From Gammaproteobacteria bacterium (GTDB lineage Bacteria > Pseudomonadota > Gammaproteobacteria > Ga0077536): a stretch of 64,000 bases of DNA. Location of the stretch: contig JBFXAQ010000014.1 of assembly GCA_050184115.1 (NCBI GenBank), forward strand, positions 30,925-94,924. Direction: 5' to 3'. The notes beneath the pieces were generated by a model. The model was not told the origin of the DNA. It saw only the letters and a program-made list of their open reading frames with translations, and searched no databases. The stretch's first letter is position 1; every line of letters starts with the position of its first letter. A program made the translations under genes and the position numbers. Shown piece after piece: positions 12,185 through 31,053 of this stretch.

Positions 12185-13249
12185 TCAGGCCTTGCGCGGC
12201 GCGGCCTTCTTCGGCGCCTTTTTCTTCGTGGGCGTCTTCTTCGCGGACCGCGCGCCGGACGCCTTGTAGGCATTGAACAGGCGCTCCTTGGGATACTCCG
12301 CCCCGGCGACGTGCTCGATGGTCGAGATGCGCACCATCTGGTAGATGCGGATGCGGAACTCGGGGTCGCAGGACATGCGCACGTAGAGATCGCGCGGGGG
12401 CACGCCGTAATCCTCCGCCAGCCATTGCATGAGGTTGGCGGTGGCATCGTAGACCGCGTGCTCGAGCGGGCGATTGATGCCGACGGCGACGATGGAGTCG
12501 GGCTTCTCAATGCGCACGCAAGGCAGGCGCTTGTTCTTCACCACCGTGCAGGAAAGTTGCACCGTGGCTCGCGTTTCGTCGGCGATGCCGGTGAACTCGG
12601 TGTCGCCCTGGCCGCCGTGGCAATCGCCGATGTAGAGCAGGCCGCCGTCGTTGTAGCTGTTGAGGTAGACGGTGTGGCCGGCGCGGATGTCGCGACAGTC
12701 GATGTTGCCGCCGAACGGGCCCTGGCCGAGCACCGAGGTGAAGACTTCACGCTCGGGCGCGGTGGCCAAGGTGCCGATGAACGGTTCGAGCTTCCAGGTC
12801 AGCGAGTCGGAGTACTTGCCCCAGCCGTCGCGGGTATGCCCGCTCGGCCCCGGCAGGTGTTCGATGACGTGGACGTAGCCCTGCGCGCAGTCCTTGTAGC
12901 GCAGCGAGTCGCCGAGCGGGCCCATGCCGGGGATGATGCCCGAGAAGCCGTAGCGCCAGGGATCGATCCAGTCGATGTGCACGGCGAGCACGTCGCCGGC
13001 CTTGCAGCCCTCGACGAAGATCGGGCCGACCACCGGGTTGAACAGCCCCGGCGTGGCCTTGGCGAGGCTCGCGAAATGCTTGCCCTCGAAGCCCATCACC
13101 TTGGGGTGGTCGCTGTCATCGGCGATCATGCCGGACAGGGCGTCATCCGTTTCGACCCGGAAGGTCTCACCCGGCTTGACCTTGAGGCATGGCTTGTCAC
13201 GGTTGTCGAAGGCGTATTTCTGGACCTTGCGGCGCTTGATCGTGCGCAT
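12185..13249 (-). CDS. Acetamidase/formamidase (FmdA/AmdA family) with Lys/Ala/Pro-rich C-terminal tail
   Basis: FmdA_AmdA-like sequence (GPIFVEGCKAGDVLAVHI...CRDIRAGHTVYL...). Strong RBS GGGGAGGGAAAACG before ATG (MRTIKRRK). C-terminus KASGARSAKKTPTKKKAPKKAAPRKA. Confidence 0.75.
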   Translation of the reverse strand: MRTIKRRKVQKYAFDNRDKPCLKVKPGETFRVETDDALSGMIADDSDHPKVMGFEGKHFASLAKATPGLFNPVVGPIFVEGCKAGDVLAVHIDWIDPWRYGFSGIIPGMGPLGDSLRYKDCAQGYVHVIEHLPGPSGHTRDGWGKYSDSLTWKLEPFIGTLATAPEREVFTSVLGQGPFGGNIDCRDIRAGHTVYLNSYNDGGLLYIGDCHGGQGDTEFTGIADETRATVQLSCTVVKNKRLPCVRIEKPDSIVAVGINRPLEHAVYDATANLMQWLAEDYGVPPRDLYVRMSCDPEFRIRIYQMVRISTIEHVAGAEYPKERLFNAYKASGARSAKKTPTKKKAPKKAAPRKA

Positions 13250-13391
13250 CGTTTTCCCTCCCCGGATGGATGTCACCGAGCGGGCATTCTAAGCCCGCGA
13301 CGCGGGCAAATTGCCCTGTCTGCTCGTATGACCGGCGCGTAGCGTGGTCGACGAGCCGGGACTGCGACCCGGTCGGAGGAGGACCCAACCC

Positions 13392-13962: not shown

Positions 13963-14604
13963 GTGATGACGGTGCAGGTTACCCCCGTCCAGGTTCTCGA
14001 TTTCTATTTCGGCACGCGCCTCGACGACGTCGCCGCCGCGCGCGCCTGCCTCGACCGCTGGTTCACGTTCGACCGCGCCTTCGACGCCGAGGTCGATGCA
14101 CGCCTCGGCGCTGCCGTGCGGCACGCCCTCGACGGTGGCTTCGGCGAGTGGAGAGGCGAGGCGCGCTCGGCGCTGGCACTGGTCGTCCTGCTCGACCAAC
14201 TGCCGCGCAACATCTTCCGCGGTACCGCGCGTGCCTTCGCCGGTGATGCGCGGGCGCGCGCGGTCGCTTTGCAGGCATTCGAAGACGGCCACGACCACGC
14301 GCTCTCGCTGACCGAGCGCATCATCCTGCACATGCCGCTCGAACACGCCGAGGACCTCGCCCTGCAGGAACGCTGCGTGGCCGGCTACGAGGCCCTGCAC
14401 GCGGCGGCCGACCCGGCCTGGCACCCGATCACGAGCGCGGCGCTCAAGGCCGGCCACGACCACCGTGCGGTGATCAGGCGCTTTGGCCGCTTCCCGCATC
14501 GCAACGTCCTGCTCGGCCGCGAATGTACGGCCGAGGAGACCGCCTACCTCGCCGAGAACCGCAGCGCCTGGGGCCAGGGTGCGGCCGATCTCGAGAAAAT
14601 CTGA
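13963..14604 (+). CDS. DUF924 family protein
   Basis: LDQLPRNIFRG and overall ~210 aa architecture are characteristic of DUF924. Confidence 0.65.
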   Translation: MMTVQVTPVQVLDFYFGTRLDDVAAARACLDRWFTFDRAFDAEVDARLGAAVRHALDGGFGEWRGEARSALALVVLLDQLPRNIFRGTARAFAGDARARAVALQAFEDGHDHALSLTERIILHMPLEHAEDLALQERCVAGYEALHAAADPAWHPITSAALKAGHDHRAVIRRFGRFPHRNVLLGRECTAEETAYLAENRSAWGQGAADLEKI

Positions 14605-14635
14605 AGTTCCACTTCGCGACGCCACCATCGCCCCA

Positions 14636-15070
14636 ATGAGCAAGACCCTGTGGACGCGCCCGGTGACCCCGGCCGACATCAACGAACTGCACCGCGCAAC
14701 CGCCTGTGAGAGCCTCGGCATCGAGTTCGTCGAGATCGGGCCCGACTACATGCGCGCGACCATGCCGGTCGACGCGCGCACGGTACAGCCCTATCGCATC
14801 CTGCACGGCGGCGCCTCGTTGCTGCTGGCCGAGACCCTGGCCTCGTGCGCGGCTGCCTTTGCCGCGCCGCCCGACCAGCGCGTGGTCGGGCTCGAGGTCA
14901 ATGGCAATCACCTCAAGTCGGCGCGCACCGGCCACGTCACCGGCACGGTGCGGCCGGTACACGTCGGCCGCAGCACGCAGGTCTGGCAGGTCGAGATCGT
15001 CAACGAAGCCGGTGAGCTGTGCTGCCTGTCGCGGGCGACGCTGGCCGTGCTGCAACCCTCCAGCGGTTGA
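14636..15070 (+). CDS. PaaI/hotdog-fold thioesterase
   Basis: 144 aa with ...YRILHGGASLLLAETLASCAAA...VWQVEIVNEAGELCCLSRATLAVLQ, a typical PaaI/4HBT fold. Trimmed from ORF 14483..15070. Confidence 0.7.
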   Translation: MSKTLWTRPVTPADINELHRATACESLGIEFVEIGPDYMRATMPVDARTVQPYRILHGGASLLLAETLASCAAAFAAPPDQRVVGLEVNGNHLKSARTGHVTGTVRPVHVGRSTQVWQVEIVNEAGELCCLSRATLAVLQPSSG

Positions 15071-15144
15071 TTGTCGCGCGCGCGAACCGGTGCTAGGTTC
15101 GCCTGCGACGCACCCGCCCGCGGTGCCCTGAGGGGAGCTGAATC

Positions 15145-15699
15145 ATGGCCAACCTGAGCCCGGTGCCGTTCGCGGACATCCCGGACTACCTGCAGAACGT
15201 CATGCATGCCTACGACGACGAACTCGGCGGTTCGGGTTTCGTCCAGGTGTTCGCGCATGCACCCGAGGTGTTCAAGCACTTCATCGATTTCTATTTCAAG
15301 CTCGAGCTCGAGACCCGTGGCGTGGTCGACGGCGTCATCACCGAACTGGCCCGCCTGATGGTGGCGCAGAAGAACAATTGTCATCTCTGAATGGGCGCCC
15401 GCCTTGCGGTCGCAAGGCAGGCAGGTCTGGACGAAGCGAAGATCGCGGAGGTTCCGCGTTACCGCGAGAGCGCGCTGTTGAACGCGCGCGAGAAGGCGGC
15501 CATCCATTACGCCGAGGTGCTGGCCGGCGATCACCAGTCGGCTGACCAGGCGTTGTTCGACGAGTTGCGCACCCAGTTCAGCGAAGCGGAGATCATCGAC
15601 CTCGGTATTCGCATCATGACCTTCGTTGGCTACGGTCGGCTGGTGCGCGTGCTCGGGCTCGAGATCGGCGGTACCTGTCCGCTGCCGCACCCGGGCTGA
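15145..15699 (+). CDS. AhpD-like / carboxymuconolactone decarboxylase (CMD)-family protein, candidate selenoprotein with in-frame UGA (Sec) at 15388-15390
   Basis: ORFs 15145..15390 and 15391..15699 are in the same frame and together give a full CMD/AhpD-like protein. The only interruption is TGA at the position of the second active-site Cys (NNCHL-U-MGA versus the family N-G-C-x-Y-C). A SECIS-like hairpin follows immediately. Confidence 0.55.
15397..15422 (+). other. Bacterial SECIS-like stem-loop downstream of the in-frame UGA
   Basis: 5'-GCCCGCCUUGC-GGUC-GCAAGGCAGGC-3' forms 11 pairs with one C·A mismatch. The GGUC apical loop starts 18 nt after UGA, matching the loop and spacing I recall for E. 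coli fdhF SECIS. Confidence 0.5.
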
Positions 15700-15777: not shown

Positions 15778-16887
15778 TCAGGCGTTCGCTGGCAGCCGCG
15801 CGAGCAGTTGCTCGGCGGCGCGGACGAGGGCGTCCTGGTGGGGCTGCAATTCCTGCTGCCCCATGTTGCCGAGGATGGCCTGGAAGGGATCGACGAGACC
15901 GGTGTCGACGCCGGCCAGGGTCTCGATGACGGCGTGGGCGAAGAACGGCACGGTCGGCGCGCTGTAGCCGCCCTCGTGGCACATCACCAGGCGCCCGTCG
16001 CAGCACTCGTCGGCGAAGCGCATGAGCTTACGCGTCAAGGCGCGATAGCCCTCGCTGGTCATCATCTGGCGACCCAGCGGGTCGTAGGCGCCGGCATCGA
16101 AGCCCGACGGCACGAAGATCAGCTCCGGGCGGTACTTCTCCAGCGCCGGCAGCACGACGCGGTCGAACACCGCCTCGTAGGCACCCACGCCCGAGCCCGG
16201 CGGCAGCGGCACGTTGATGTTGCAGCCGGCACCACGGCCCTCGCCGTTCTCGTGCAGGAAGCCCGAGTTGTGCGGGAAGCAGCGATCCTGGTGTACCGAG
16301 ATGGTCAGCGCGCGTGGATCGTCGTAGAACGCCGCCTGGGTGCCATTGCCGTGGTGCACGTCCCAGTCGACGTAGGCGATGCGCGCAAGCCCGCGCACGT
16401 CGAGCGCGTGGCGCCCGGCGATGGCGCCGTTGCAGAAGATGCAGAAGCCCATGGCGAGTTCGGGCATGGCGTGGTGGCCGGGCGGACGCACCAGGGCGTA
16501 GGCGTTGGCGAGGCGACCGTCGAGCACCGCGTCGACCGCCGCGACGACGCCGCCGGCGGCGAGCAGCGCGATGTCGAAGCTGCCGCGACCCATCGGCGTG
16601 AACACGCCGGCGTCGACGCCGAGGCTGTCGTTGAGTCCGCGGATGTGCTCGAGATGGGTGCGGGTGTGCACGCGCAGGACCTCGGCTTCGGTCGCCGGAC
16701 GGGGGGCGATCTCGGTGACCTGGTCGAGCAGGCCGGACACCGCCATGAGGTTCCTGATGCGGCGCTTGGTGTCGGGGTTCTCGGCGTGCTCGTAGGGTTC
16801 GACGGGATTACCGTAGGGCATGACGCCGGCGAGGTTGCCGGTGTTGTGCCAGAGGTAGAGTTCATGAAATACGAAGCCGGTCGGCAT
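15778..16887 (-). CDS. Histone-deacetylase-family amidohydrolase (AcuC/AphA-like)
   Basis: Arginase/deacetylase-fold motifs (PPGHHA, DWDVHHGNGTQ, GGGY...). Start MPTGFVFHELYLWH with GGGGAGGA RBS (CAT 16885-16887). Confidence 0.8.
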   Translation of the reverse strand: MPTGFVFHELYLWHNTGNLAGVMPYGNPVEPYEHAENPDTKRRIRNLMAVSGLLDQVTEIAPRPATEAEVLRVHTRTHLEHIRGLNDSLGVDAGVFTPMGRGSFDIALLAAGGVVAAVDAVLDGRLANAYALVRPPGHHAMPELAMGFCIFCNGAIAGRHALDVRGLARIAYVDWDVHHGNGTQAAFYDDPRALTISVHQDRCFPHNSGFLHENGEGRGAGCNINVPLPPGSGVGAYEAVFDRVVLPALEKYRPELIFVPSGFDAGAYDPLGRQMMTSEGYRALTRKLMRFADECCDGRLVMCHEGGYSAPTVPFFAHAVIETLAGVDTGLVDPFQAILGNMGQQELQPHQDALVRAAEQLLARLPANA

Positions 16888-16912
16888 GCCTGAGTCCTCC
16901 CCGGGATTTGTG

Positions 16913-17689
16913 ATGACGGCGCGCCGTATTGTCGCGCAAAGCCGCTGGCTTGCCGTGGCCGCGATGGTGGCCGTCGTCGTCACCGCGACCGTGACGGCGG
17001 CACCCGAGCCCGGCGCAAGGCAGTTCGTCGTCGGCGCGTTCTCGACGGCGCACCCGGGCGAGGCGACGGACCCGGCCTGGCGGCCGCTCGCGTTCGACGG
17101 CCGGCCCGGGCCGACCGTCTATACGCTGGTCGCGGACGGCGGCGCAACGGTGGTGGCGGCACGCGCTGCGGGGACCGCGTCCGGGCTTCTGCGCGAACTC
17201 GACCTGGCGCCGACGCAGTGGCCGCGGCTGCGCTGGCGCTGGAAGCTCGAAACCCTGCCGCGCGGCGCCGACATCGGCCGTCGCGAGGGCGACGACTACG
17301 CCGCACGGATTTACGTCACCTTCGCCTACGACGCCGAGGACGTCGGCCTGTTCGAACGCGCGCGGTTCGAACTGCTGCGGCTGCGTTACGGACACTACCC
17401 GCCGCGCGCCGCGCTGAACTACGTCTGGGACGCCGGCGCCGCGGTCGGCACCGTCAGGCCCAATGCCTACACCGGCCGGGTGCGCATGGTGGTGCTCGAA
17501 TCCGGGCCGGCCCGAGCGGGCGAGTGGGTCATCGAGGAGCGCGACCTCCTCGCCGATTTCCGCCACGCCTTCGGCTACCCGCCGCCGCGCATCAGCGGCA
17601 TCGCCATCATGACCGATGCCGACGACACCGGATCGGTCGCGGCGGCACGTTACGGCGACATCGAGCTCCTCGGACACGGGGCGCCGTGA
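16913..17689 (+). CDS. DUF3047 domain protein (secreted/membrane-anchored)
   Basis: Start MTARRIVAQSRWLAVAAMVAVVV (signal/anchor) and DUF3047-like body. An alternative ATG at 16886 would overlap the divergent HDAC start. Confidence 0.55.
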   Translation: MTARRIVAQSRWLAVAAMVAVVVTATVTAAPEPGARQFVVGAFSTAHPGEATDPAWRPLAFDGRPGPTVYTLVADGGATVVAARAAGTASGLLRELDLAPTQWPRLRWRWKLETLPRGADIGRREGDDYAARIYVTFAYDAEDVGLFERARFELLRLRYGHYPPRAALNYVWDAGAAVGTVRPNAYTGRVRMVVLESGPARAGEWVIEERDLLADFRHAFGYPPPRISGIAIMTDADDTGSVAAARYGDIELLGHGAP

Positions 17690-23314: not shown

Positions 23315-24472
23315 ATGCAGGACATCGGCAAGCTGCTGCCGCTCGACGAGCAGGTCAACCACCAGATCATCGATACCTTTGCCACTGTCGCGCAGTCGGA
23401 CCTGTCGTGGACGGAGAAGTTGTGGACGCCGGTTTCGCGCAAGGACGGCAGCCTGCAGCTCGACATGGGGATGGGGCGCTATCCCAACCGCGGCGTTCTC
23501 GATGGCTTCGCCGGCCTCTCGCGCGGGCTCGAGCAGTGGACGGTACGGGCCAGCCGCGAACTCTCGCTCGACCCCTTGGCGACCGCGGTCGGCCCGCTCA
23601 GTTACGAAGTCCTCGAACCCTTGAAGCAGGTGCGCTGGAAGCTCGAGAAGAACGACATCGTCCCGCTCGAGTTCGACATCACCTTCCATGCAACCTTCCC
23701 GGCCTTCTTCGAGGATCGCCACATCCAGCGCGACGAGCACAGCTTTCGCGTCGTCTCCAACGTGGTGCGCTACCACCAGGCGGGCGAACCCAGCGGCTGG
23801 TACGCCATCGACGGCAAGCGCGAGACCATCAACACCGAGGACTGGTTCTGCTACCGCGACCATTCCTGGGGCGTGCGTCTCGACGTCGGTGCGCCGCCGT
23901 CGGACCTGCGCCCGGCACGCGACTTCGGCGAGCGCAAGTTCGAGGATTCCAAGTTCCTGCTCAATTGGTCACCGCTGCTGTTGCAGCGACCCGACGGCAG
24001 TCGCTACGAGTATCACTTCTACCTGCAGATCCGTGGTGACGAGGTGTTCTACTTTTCCGGCTATCGCAACCACGCCGACGGCCGCCAGGAGCGCATCGCA
24101 CGCGCGCGCCCGGAACTGCGTTACGTCGACGAGACTCGCCGCCTGATCGGCGGTCGCATTCATTTCGACATGCTCTCGGGCGAGACGGCGACGGTCGAAC
24201 TCGAGGTACGTGGCGAGTCCGGCTTCTACCTGGGGCCCGCCCTCTATCTCGGTTTCGACGGCAAGAAGCACGGCAACTGGCGCGGCGAACTCGCGCTCGA
24301 CGGCGAGCAGATCCCGGACATGACGAATCCCGAGGTGCGCAAGCGCATGGGCTCGGCCGTGCGCGACACCATCGTCGCCGTGCGCGAGGGCGAGGCCACC
24401 GGCCATGGCCTGTTCGAGCCCATCGTGCTGGGCGAGTGGCCGGACCTCGAACTCTACGGCACCCAGCCCTGA
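23315..24472 (+). CDS. Conserved hypothetical protein (385 aa), unknown function
   Basis: Strong RBS GAGGGGAGAA before ATG 23315. Soluble, Trp/Tyr-rich. No family recognised with confidence. Confidence 0.5.
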   Translation: MQDIGKLLPLDEQVNHQIIDTFATVAQSDLSWTEKLWTPVSRKDGSLQLDMGMGRYPNRGVLDGFAGLSRGLEQWTVRASRELSLDPLATAVGPLSYEVLEPLKQVRWKLEKNDIVPLEFDITFHATFPAFFEDRHIQRDEHSFRVVSNVVRYHQAGEPSGWYAIDGKRETINTEDWFCYRDHSWGVRLDVGAPPSDLRPARDFGERKFEDSKFLLNWSPLLLQRPDGSRYEYHFYLQIRGDEVFYFSGYRNHADGRQERIARARPELRYVDETRRLIGGRIHFDMLSGETATVELEVRGESGFYLGPALYLGFDGKKHGNWRGELALDGEQIPDMTNPEVRKRMGSAVRDTIVAVREGEATGHGLFEPIVLGEWPDLELYGTQP

Positions 24473-28427: not shown

Positions 28428-30692
28428 TCAATCGAGCAACGGCTTGCCGCTGACGAATCGATCGAGCACGTTCTTGGTGATGCGCGAGACGTTGTTCCTG
28501 TAGTTGTCGTGGGCGAGCGAGCCCGGCCAGGCGATCGAACTGGTCGCGAACACGCCGCCGCCGTTGGCGGTCTCGTAGAAGACGAGATCCGCGCGTACGA
28601 GGTCGTTCTCCTGGCCGCCGGTGCCGGGGTAGTTGATCAGCATCTCCTCGCACACCACGAGGTAGATGTCGGTGTGATCCTCCGAGGATGCCAGCAGGTA
28701 GGCATTGGGCGGTGTGCCCAGCGCACGGTCGGCGCGGTCGAGCTCGAGCCCGGCGGCGCCGCCGCCGATGAGGCCGAAGTCGCCGATGCGCTCGTCGGCG
28801 CCGACGCCGTTCATGATCCAGCGCACCTCCTTCCTGAAGCTGTCCGGCTTGCGCACGTAGTACGACGAGATGTCGAAACCCTGGGCGGTGAAGCCGGTGC
28901 CGACAATCTGCTGCGGCGGGCGGCCGTTACGTCGCCACAGTCCGCCGTACTCGCCGGTGAAACCGTGGTAGTACTCGCCCGTGCGCGCCTCCCAGGCGCG
29001 GATGCCGTCTTCGTTGCGCCGCACCTCGATGATGCCGGGCACCTCGCCGTGGTAAGCGATGCGCCAGTACCAGCCGTTGGCGCCCAGGTACATGAAGCGG
29101 CCGCCGCGCTGCTGCCAGGCATGCAGCGCATCCCACATCTGCTTCGAGTGGTATTCGGGATGCGAAGACGACAACACCACGCGGTAGGGCTCGATGGACT
29201 TGAGGCCTTCGTAGTGCAGCTCTTCGTCGGTGATGACGTCGTACTCGTAGCCCATGTTCTCGAGCCAGTTGATGATGTGGGTGTCGGCGTTGAACTGCCA
29301 CAGGGTCGAGCCCTCGCCACCCAGCCACGACTTGTACTTCGGCCGCATGTTGAGGATGGGGCGCAGGCGCGAGGAATGGCACACGCCCGAGCCGTCCGAA
29401 TGCACGTCGTAGCAGCTCGAACCATACTCGCGGTGCACGTTGCGGTAGAGATCCTGCCGCTCGTGCTCGACCAGGCGACCGCCGAGCAGCTGGGCAATCG
29501 GCGCGTCCGTGCCCATGTGCTCGTTGGCGTAGGCCATGTAGCTGGCCGTCGGCAGCACGAAACAGATCTTCGCCGTCGCCTGGCCGCGCGGCGGCAGCAC
29601 CGCGAACGGCACGTAGTCCTCGTCTTCGAGAGCCGCGCCGCAACGCAGGCGCGCGCAGTAGAGACCACTCTTGAGATTCTTCGGCACGGTCAGCGAGACA
29701 TCGACCTGCCAGGCCGCGTCGTAGACGTCGTCGTCGTGGAAGTGGATGGCGCCGTACTCGCGTGGCGCGTGGCGCCAGTTCATCTCCTCGCCGCTCCAGT
29801 TCCAGCCGGTCATGCCGCGCGCCGGCATGTGTACGACGTGCCCGTGCAGCCGGTTGGGTGAAAGATCGGAGACGCGCAAGCCGGTGATGTCGGTACTGAA
29901 GTCCCAGGCGCCGAAGACGTCGTTGGCCAGCGTGCGATCGAGGTTCGGTGCACGCAGGGTTTCCATCTCGGCGCGGTCGAGGGCGCGGGTCGCGATGCGC
30001 GGGCTGTCGATCTTGCCGTTGTAGTGCTGGTCGCACACCGTGCGGCCGGCGTCGAAGCGCTGGAAGCGGGCGGCGAGGGTGACGGGGCCATCGTGGCCGC
30101 CGAGGCGGGCTGTCTTCGCCGTGGCGCGGACGAGCGCCGCGTCGCGCGTGCCGACATGGGTGTGCAGGGGTTCCTGGATCAGCACCACTTTCTTTGTCCG
30201 GGCATCGAAGCTCGCGGCGATGAAATACCACTCGTGGGCGAGCAGGGCACGCCCGGTGGTGAAGGTTTCGCTGCGGCCGCGGGCGCCACCGAGGGTGAGC
30301 GAGATGCCGCCGTTGTCGGCGGCGATGCCGAGCACTGCGCCACCGCCCTGGCGACCTGCCCAATGGCTGATCAGCGCCTGCGCGCCGCGTTCTGGAGTAG
30401 TTGGCCAGATGAAGGCTTGCAGCGTGAAGCTGTCGAGTGCCGGCATGTTGTCGGCGCGCGGGATCTCGACGAACGAGCCGGCGTGAATCACCTGCTTGCG
30501 GCCCTTGTAGGTGCCGTTGGCCGGCGTGCGCACGACGCGTTCCTGGTACCCCGGGCCGTCCGGATTCATGTCGCCGCAGATCAGGCGCACGAAGTCGGCG
30601 CGAAATTCCCTCGCATCGCAGTTGACCATGAAGTTGATGGTTTCACCGGGCGCCACGCTGACGCGGTCGGCATAGGCAGTGATCTTCATCAT
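28428..30692 (-). CDS. dmfA2: N,N-dimethylformamidase large (beta) subunit
   Basis: ~755 aa. Start MMKITAYADRVSVAPGE with strong RBS GGGGGGAGGAAACAG. Sequence resembles the DMFase large subunit of Paracoccus/Methylobacterium/Alcaligenes type. Confidence 0.65.
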   Translation of the reverse strand: MMKITAYADRVSVAPGETINFMVNCDAREFRADFVRLICGDMNPDGPGYQERVVRTPANGTYKGRKQVIHAGSFVEIPRADNMPALDSFTLQAFIWPTTPERGAQALISHWAGRQGGGAVLGIAADNGGISLTLGGARGRSETFTTGRALLAHEWYFIAASFDARTKKVVLIQEPLHTHVGTRDAALVRATAKTARLGGHDGPVTLAARFQRFDAGRTVCDQHYNGKIDSPRIATRALDRAEMETLRAPNLDRTLANDVFGAWDFSTDITGLRVSDLSPNRLHGHVVHMPARGMTGWNWSGEEMNWRHAPREYGAIHFHDDDVYDAAWQVDVSLTVPKNLKSGLYCARLRCGAALEDEDYVPFAVLPPRGQATAKICFVLPTASYMAYANEHMGTDAPIAQLLGGRLVEHERQDLYRNVHREYGSSCYDVHSDGSGVCHSSRLRPILNMRPKYKSWLGGEGSTLWQFNADTHIINWLENMGYEYDVITDEELHYEGLKSIEPYRVVLSSSHPEYHSKQMWDALHAWQQRGGRFMYLGANGWYWRIAYHGEVPGIIEVRRNEDGIRAWEARTGEYYHGFTGEYGGLWRRNGRPPQQIVGTGFTAQGFDISSYYVRKPDSFRKEVRWIMNGVGADERIGDFGLIGGGAAGLELDRADRALGTPPNAYLLASSEDHTDIYLVVCEEMLINYPGTGGQENDLVRADLVFYETANGGGVFATSSIAWPGSLAHDNYRNNVSRITKNVLDRFVSGKPLLD

Positions 30693-30726
30693 TGTTCTGT
30701 TTCCTCCCCCCAGATCGTACGTCGGC

Positions 30727-31053
30727 TCAGGCGCGCAAGGTTTCACCCGTCAGCGCCTTCCAGCGCTGGCGGAAGACGTACCACTCGGCCTCGGTCTGGC
30801 TGGTGAAACGCCGGTTGAGCAGCTTGACCGGTTCGCCGGGTTTGCCGGTGGTCCGGGCGAGCTGCCATTCACGGTTGGGCTTGATCACCACCAGGCAGTA
30901 CTTGTCTGCCATGGGCGCACCGCGCATGCGCGTGAGCAGGCGCTGCAGGTCCGGACTGTGGTGTCCGATCGGGTTGTGCTTGAATTCCTCGATGAGGCGG
31001 CGGTCGTCCGCCTGCGGCCGGTAGTTCTCGTGCGCTTCTTTGAGTTCTGCCAT
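30727..31053 (-). CDS. dmfA1: N,N-dimethylformamidase small (alpha) subunit
   Basis: 108-aa MAELKEAHENYRPQADDRRLIEEFKHNP... ORF 34 nt upstream of the large subunit, with GGGGAGGA RBS. Trimmed from ORF 30727..31239. Confidence 0.6.
   Translation of the reverse strand: MAELKEAHENYRPQADDRRLIEEFKHNPIGHHSPDLQRLLTRMRGAPMADKYCLVVIKPNREWQLARTTGKPGEPVKLLNRRFTSQTEAEWYVFRQRWKALTGETLRA

Follow-up and report, generated by a model that had tools for sequence, protein, structure and literature searches.

Does the TGA at positions 15388-15390 of a 64,000-nucleotide stretch of gammaproteobacterial DNA (contig JBFXAQ010000014.1, positions 30,925 to 94,924; hereafter the window, to which all coordinates refer) end a gene, or does it encode an amino acid? 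On the + strand an ATG at 15145 is followed by 81 sense codons, the TGA in question, 102 further in-frame codons and a terminal TGA at 15697-15699, exactly the layout described in the original prediction, in which two same-frame open reading frames (ORFs) are parted only by the first TGA. The peptide across the junction reads TELARLMVAQKNNCHL, stop, MGARLAVARQAGL, with AQKNNCHL and MGARLAVARQ as the residues flanking the stop. We propose that 15145-15699 is a single gene encoding a 184-residue selenoprotein of the AhpD-like/carboxymuconolactone decarboxylase (CMD) type with the motif C79-H-L-U82, in which the UGA encodes selenocysteine (Sec) with the help of a functional selenocysteine insertion sequence (SECIS), and we consider this reading very probable. 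The earlier proposal of a candidate selenoprotein is upheld by the conservation of the UGA, purifying selection on both halves, a covarying hairpin which falls within the published bounds of bacterial SECIS elements, and literature precedent.

The same layout would arise if a nonsense mutation (TGC to TGA) had inactivated a CMD gene, or if the sequencing or the assembly had gone wrong here; TGC and TGA are one base apart, Cys forms of the gene exist, and none of the Sec machinery was seen in the window. The whole gene, TGA included, is nevertheless 100% identical in two assemblies built independently from other runs, which speaks against the sequencing error that a check had been advised to exclude. 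We collected 160 related loci from genomes and metagenomes, to which three others were added (163 in all). Their protein identity ranges over 51-97%, and their sources are Gammaproteobacteria, Binatia, 'Deltaproteobacteria' bins and Methylomirabilota, besides marine single-cell and Tara assemblies. TGA stands at the UGA column in 160 of the 163, down to 51% identity, and TGC, the only sense codon found at this column, in three: L017, L018 (Nevskia) and L030. Of the homologs found in protein databases, 13 are full-length and about 75 are fragments of 102-116 amino acids that match the C-terminal half only, which is the trace left by gene callers at a recoded UGA. Nine of the full-length homologs have CxxC and, together with the three TGC loci, confirm the Cys/Sec column that an alignment of CMD homologs had been expected to reveal; the other four (P0001, P0005, P0007 and P0013) have 'CxxW'. 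The DNA was read for P0001 alone among these four (L001:407-967), where a TGA stands in place of the W; the call was apparently made with genetic code 4. All four are listed as full-length by metagenome calls on short contigs and could pass for Trp variants. A further database entry, P0073 (272 amino acids, ENA), joins N-terminal glutathione S-transferase (GST) domains to a stretch 93% identical to the C-terminal half of the window protein; it may be a frame artefact, a chimeric call or a real fusion.

Both halves of the gene are conserved to the same degree. Over 155 UGA loci the median identity to the window is 63% for the N-terminal half and 64% for the C-terminal half, with extra stops in two loci in the former and in one locus in the latter. 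Compared with the syntenic sister genome L004 (about 87% DNA identity), the N-terminal half differs by 13 synonymous codon changes and 1 nonsynonymous one, the C-terminal half by 22 and 4, respectively. Since the halves are equally conserved and the changes are mostly synonymous, we conclude that this frame is translated in both halves and that purifying selection acts on them. An intact, conserved frame after the stop is not what a decaying gene or a sequence error would leave behind.

Immediately downstream of the UGA lies a hairpin, 5'-GCCCGCCUUGC (15397-15407), GGUC (15408-15411), GCAAGGCAGGC-3' (15412-15422), within codons 85-93. Its arms of 11 nucleotides (nt) each form 10 standard pairs and one C15400-A15419 mismatch; the mismatch had been foreseen, whereas the 11 pairs counted beside it are in fact 10. 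The upper stem (15401-15407/15412-15418) has 7 bp without interruption, the lower stem consists of 15397-15399/15420-15422, and the stem holds the Arg codon AGG, which accounts for just 3.1% of the Arg codons of the window. The GGUC loop begins at nt 18 after the UGA, as had been claimed, leaving 17 nt between the two. Bacterial SECIS elements are described as having a loop of 3-9 nt, an upper stem of 4-16 bp, a UGA-loop spacing of 16-37 nt, a G at loop position 1, 2 or both, and a minimum free energy of -7.5 kcal/mol or lower (PMC13188914). The window hairpin carries a 4-nt loop, GGUC, on its 7-bp upper stem, at a spacing of 17 nt (20 nt in the class B relatives described below), and folds at -17.3 kcal/mol; among the homologs, folded from nt 7 to 45 after the UGA, 159 of 161 lie within the energy limit.

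Aligned from UGA-6 to UGA+50, the related loci fall into two SECIS classes which differ in register and loop and follow lineage as well as the local peptide (ARLAVARQ versus ARFALARQQ). In class A, which includes the window and is mostly gammaproteobacterial, the stem is CCUUGC/GCAAGG and the loop, 17 nt from the UGA, is GGUC or AGUU, the G and U at loop positions 2-3 being invariant; class B, mostly from Binatia and relatives, has the stem UUGCCUU/AAGGCAA with a GGC loop, 3 nt further downstream (20 nt). In class A (33 distinct sequences including the window) five pairs change on both sides, as in the case of a U-A pair replaced by C-G in nine sequences with zero unpaired cases, and the covariation score is 0.258 versus 0.141 for shuffled alignments (0 of 500 shuffles reach it), while slid registers give at most 0.112. 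The 7-bp stem of class B (83 sequences) is 99.8% paired, and three of its pairs covary (C-G/G-C/U-A, U-A/C-G and U-A/C-G), again with 0 of 500 shuffles reaching the observed value. Several of the compensatory changes recode the residue, from Arg to Gly, Lys or Ala, and the pairing is therefore kept at the protein's expense. In the three Cys forms 2-3 of the 7 stem pairs are broken. At UGA-equivalent positions +14 to +31 these forms (L017, L018, L030) still pair at 4-5 of 7 class-A positions, which could be a SECIS decaying after a recent Sec-to-Cys replacement, or chance in G+C-rich coding sequence. These alignments mark the hairpin as a selected RNA structure.

Covariation of this kind is at odds with a pseudogene or a sequence error. 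The pattern that had been named as the mark of a nonsense-mutated pseudogene, TGC orthologs without hairpin conservation, is not what the family shows: TGA prevails in the family and the hairpin covaries. The pseudogene or error explanation has next to no probability left, and we regard it as effectively refuted.

The hairpin had been likened to the SECIS of Escherichia coli fdhF, which reads UGA-CACGGCCCAUCGGUUGCA-GGUC-UGCACC. Both are stem-loops that follow directly on the UGA and are capped by a 4-nt GGUC loop, which starts at nt 18 in the window and at nt 19 in fdhF, so the resemblance in loop sequence and spacing stands. The E. coli element has a bulged U, whereas the upper stem of the window hairpin is made of seven uninterrupted pairs with no counterpart of that bulge, and class B of this gene family, in its other register, carries a GGC loop unlike the GGUC of fdhF.

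The joined protein, with U replaced by C, matches the Pfam CMD domain PF02627 at 36.4 bits (cutoff 23; E 5e-9), which bears out the claim that the two ORFs make up a complete CMD/AhpD-like protein. The family profile retrieves the AhpD-like structures PA0269, Atu0492 and Bmp8 and several 'peroxidase-related' proteins, and homologs are labelled 'alkylhydroperoxidase family enzyme' by JGI. In the profile alignment to PDB chains the family motif 'ndCrlC' sits on 'NGCAYC' of PA0269, and the UGA is therefore the second Cys of the CxxC, the catalytic position at which the original prediction had placed it. The NCBIfam model TIGR01926, 'peroxidase-related enzyme', aligns end to end (positions 3-172 of 178) with 52.8 bits.

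The AlphaFold (AF2) model of P0002, a Cys form 65% identical to the window protein, is all-helical (predicted local distance difference test, pLDDT, 78; predicted TM score, pTM, 0.72), with the CxxC at the N-terminus of helix 80-92. It matches 3c1l, 2prr, 2pfx and 2oyo ('peroxidase-related'), PA0269 and Bmp8 at TM 0.6-0.72, and Mycobacterium tuberculosis AhpD is a marginal structural match (E about 0.6). The proton relay of AhpD comprises Glu118/Cys130/His132/Cys133/His137 in M. tuberculosis and Glu36/Cys48/Tyr50/Cys51/His55 in PA0269 (PMC3141380). The equivalents in the window protein, by the PA0269 profile alignment, are Glu67/Cys79/Leu81/Sec82/Arg86, of which Glu67, Cys79 and Arg86 do not vary across the family alignments. 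The Glu and the redox pair are thus retained. The protein thus shares with AhpD and PA0269 (2ijc, 2o4d, 7xw1) the all-helical fold and a CxxC on the same helix hairpin, and differs from them in having Sec in place of the second Cys, and Leu81 and the invariant Arg86 in relay positions. The five-residue relay of AhpD sensu stricto is not preserved, His/Tyr being replaced by Leu81 and His by Arg86.

Several results weigh against the selenoprotein reading or against parts of it. The folding energy of the hairpin is no better than that of shuffled sequence (z = -0.83; the DNA is 69% G+C), and since its stability equals that of the shuffled controls the hairpin alone proves nothing; its significance comes from conservation and covariation, not from folding energy. 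Rfam searches of the window at the gathering threshold and of the locus at E<=10 gave zero SECIS-family matches, with nothing reaching the threshold of SECIS_2 or SECIS_3. The covariance-model check that had been recommended thus came out negative, and the part of the fdhF comparison that would make this an fdhF-type element fails with it. In a positive control SECIS_2 scores fdhF at 87.1 bits; the Rfam SECIS models work but are specific to the fdhF gene family, and the likeness to fdhF is one of architecture only, with no detectable sequence-family membership. The joined protein remains below the curated cutoff of TIGR01926 (81.8) and, at 63.8 bits over an end-to-end alignment, below that of NF053654, 'YciW-related (seleno)protein' (310 bits). 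With the relay His/Tyr and His lacking, AhpD-type chemistry is, as far as the alignment indicates, not assured. ARAGORN found no tRNA, and hence no tRNA-Sec, in the window, and no tRNA-Sec in 60 related loci; Pfam scans found no SelA, SelB or SelD among 40 window ORFs, and E. coli SelA, SelB and SelD gave nothing below E = 1 in tblastn against the window and the 163 loci (1.69 Mb). Finally, the codon after the UGA is ATG in the window, and a restart of translation is possible on this sequence alone.

That ATG makes it conceivable that the locus holds two small genes, whose 81- and 102-amino-acid polypeptides, translated by TGA-ATG stop-start coupling, assemble non-covalently into the CMD fold. 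ATG follows the TGA in 69 of 161 loci besides the window, and the public annotation calls the 102-amino-acid ORF a gene. In many homologs, however, the codon at this place cannot start translation (AAG 13, CAG 3, CGC 2, ACN 4, AGG/CGG 2, and others), no Shine-Dalgarno-like sequence precedes the internal ATG, and the split would cut the CxxC active site exactly. The Cys forms are single chains, and two genes would leave the covarying hairpin unexplained. We consider such a pair of genes highly improbable.

That no Sec machinery was observed, together with the fact that some gene callers rendered the UGA of homologs as Trp, would also suit a UGA decoded as something other than Sec, either by a reassigned code (Trp or Gly) or by near-cognate read-through (Trp, Cys or Arg). 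Against this, TGA is an ordinary stop in the window, where it closes 27 of the 31 Pfam-supported ORFs and this gene itself; the nine full-length Cys proteins agree with the related loci, in which Cys is the sole alternative to UGA, in a Sec/Cys signature; and a SECIS-type hairpin lies at the canonical distance from the UGA. Gammaproteobacteria and Binatia are not known to reassign UGA, which also counts against non-Sec decoding, and we allow it only a very slight chance. Sec insertion, our preferred reading, presupposes Sec machinery, the existence of which the conservation pattern suggests. Sec decoding is a common trait among Gammaproteobacteria (PMC1794560); a literature search for a link between Binatia and selenocysteine found none.

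We propose that, when a ribosome arrives at the UGA, the hairpin 7-32 nt downstream would act as a bacterial SECIS. SelB-GTP-Sec-tRNA(Sec) would be captured by its G-rich apical loop, which lies 17 nt beyond the UGA; the ribosome would insert selenocysteine where it would otherwise terminate, and translation would run on to the stop at the end of the second ORF. The SECIS sequence would then be constrained by RNA structure and protein together. In the folded product the nucleophilic attack would come from Sec82, which lies at a helix N-terminus, and Cys79 would resolve the intermediate as a selenenyl-sulfide, to be reduced by a thiol partner. Peroxides and peroxiredoxins are candidate substrates, among others. 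The protein is most likely a selenol/thiol oxidoreductase; the 'peroxidase-type' activity suggested for it, that is, reduction of peroxide or peroxiredoxin, would be the default guess. Bmp8, a thiol-dependent dehalogenase (debrominase) of the CMD fold (6ohi, 6ohj), shares the fold with the window protein (TM about 0.65; sequence E 2.5e-7) and is an example of a CxxC protein of this fold whose chemistry is not peroxide reduction. It differs in that the identity is about 20% and in that it lacks selenocysteine. Bmp8 sits in a biosynthetic gene cluster, a context not seen at the window.

AhpD-like selenoproteins have been reported in bacteria, as the original prediction stated. AhpD-like (COG2128) CxxU and CMD-domain CxxU selenoproteins are known from the Sargasso Sea since 2005 (PMC1088965), 'AhpD-like 1', with 299 Sec and 902 Cys forms, ranked fourth in abundance among the prokaryotic selenoprotein families of the Global Ocean Sampling (GOS) data in 2008 (PMC2398784), and AhpD-like selenoproteins are listed in a 2026 review (PMC13188914), which cites TIGR01926 as their model, and in BSepDB (PMC13326102). 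The window protein has the same fold family as these, the C-x-x-U motif with Sec for the second Cys, Cys homologs, and a SECIS directly downstream inside the coding sequence. It departs from them in scoring below the TIGR01926 and NF053654 cutoffs and in being annotated by NCBI only as a C-terminal fragment. No curated selenoprotein model captures the subfamily. The gene is a correctly identified member of the established AhpD-like CxxU family, and it is mildly new in that its subfamily lies outside the curated selenoprotein models and is almost entirely Sec-containing.

Binatia genomes, many of them complete or near-complete, hold two distant copies of the gene, both with UGA (L035 and L058 on OY282457.1, and the pairs L051 and L064, L055 and L068, L062 and L070, L063 and L075, L066 and L071, and L047 and L072). 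OY282457.1 and OZ246888.1 are examples of complete chromosomes with two copies. In a group of paralogs (L076:5988-6549, L077:10000-10561 and L079:10000-10561) the UGA and a class-B SECIS are kept, but ...SSAKP-U replaces ...N-x-C-x-L-U, so that these lack the resolving Cys three residues before the UGA. The contig of L079, CAVWXK010000001.1, also carries an ordinary CxxU copy (L016), and L076 and L034 belong to one metagenome-assembled genome (MAG). It is possible that the SSAKP-U paralogs act through a single selenol, by a different mechanism.

We also considered that the family might be a distinct selenoenzyme subfamily with new chemistry, such as that of a selenol reductase, action on a non-peroxide substrate or a Bmp8-like reaction, and not another AhpD-like peroxidase adaptor. 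The features that would mark it as such are the Sec content of about 98% of the sampled loci, the active site Glu-Cys-x-Leu-Sec-x3-Arg without the AhpD His relay, the escape from curated hidden Markov models (HMMs), the Binatia duplicates, the SSAKP-U paralogs and the two SECIS classes. On balance we think this rather unlikely.

Table 1 Positions of the predicted selenoprotein gene, its parts and neighbouring genes in the window
Feature	Position	Strand	Remarks
Shine-Dalgarno-like GAGGGGAG	15130..15137	+	7 nt 5' of ATG; read from sequence
N-terminal coding part, residues 1-81	15145..15387	+	includes Glu67 (15343-15345) and Cys79 (15379-15381) of C-x-x-U
In-frame UGA, residue 82, proposed to be read as selenocysteine	15388..15390	+	conserved TGA; aligns with second Cys of PA0269 CxxC
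C-terminal coding part, residues 83-184	15391..15696	+	includes invariant Arg86 (15400-15402); a separate 102-amino-acid protein in databases
True stop codon TGA of the gene	15697..15699	+	TGA ends 27/31 Pfam-supported window ORFs
Predicted SECIS hairpin inside the coding sequence	15397..15422	+	begins 7 nt after UGA
DUF924 gene	13963..14604	+	5' of the selenoprotein gene; with the next gene, 13963-15070
4HBT thioesterase gene	~14636..15070	+	5' of the selenoprotein gene
Histone-deacetylase-family gene	15778..16983	-	convergent, 3' of the selenoprotein gene
Acetamidase/formamidase-family protein	12185..13288	-	
N,N-dimethylformamidase beta-subunit-like protein	28428..30749	-	DMFA2_C, 333 bits

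The order of the DUF924, 4HBT and histone-deacetylase neighbours is common to L002, L003 and L004 and is not family-wide. Clustering of the neighbourhoods gave lineage-specific synteny only, with no conserved partner gene next to the family loci and no conserved ahpC-type partner near them; a partner may be encoded elsewhere. The formamidase-type genes of the window are a hint that this uncultured gammaproteobacterium may break down amides or formamide. When the window was scanned for further in-frame TGAs flanked on either side by coding signal, the target alone came up, besides an ordinary gene junction at 24470, and four adjacent same-frame ORF pairs were rejected as recoding sites, these being normal gene ends.

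General knowledge of selenoproteins is unchanged by this gene, since the AhpD-like CxxU family has been known since 2005 and is among the most abundant in ocean metagenomes. The locus offers a natural example of one sequence serving two codes, where the SECIS stem is kept by compensation even where the amino acid changes. The practical value lies in annotation, in putting together again a gene which the databases have broken up. NCBI annotates only the 102-amino-acid fragment (MGE0487157.1, MGE3569121.1 and MCB1747306.1, the last in the sister genome JACKNG01), and in an exhaustive search with the C-terminal half 92 of the 150 best cluster representatives are fragments of at most 135 amino acids. 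Public records divide this gene and about 100 relatives into an unannotated 81-amino-acid piece and a 'CMD family' or 'hypothetical' protein of 102-110 amino acids, or read the UGA as Trp, and selenium use in uncultured Gammaproteobacteria and Binatia is therefore under-counted.

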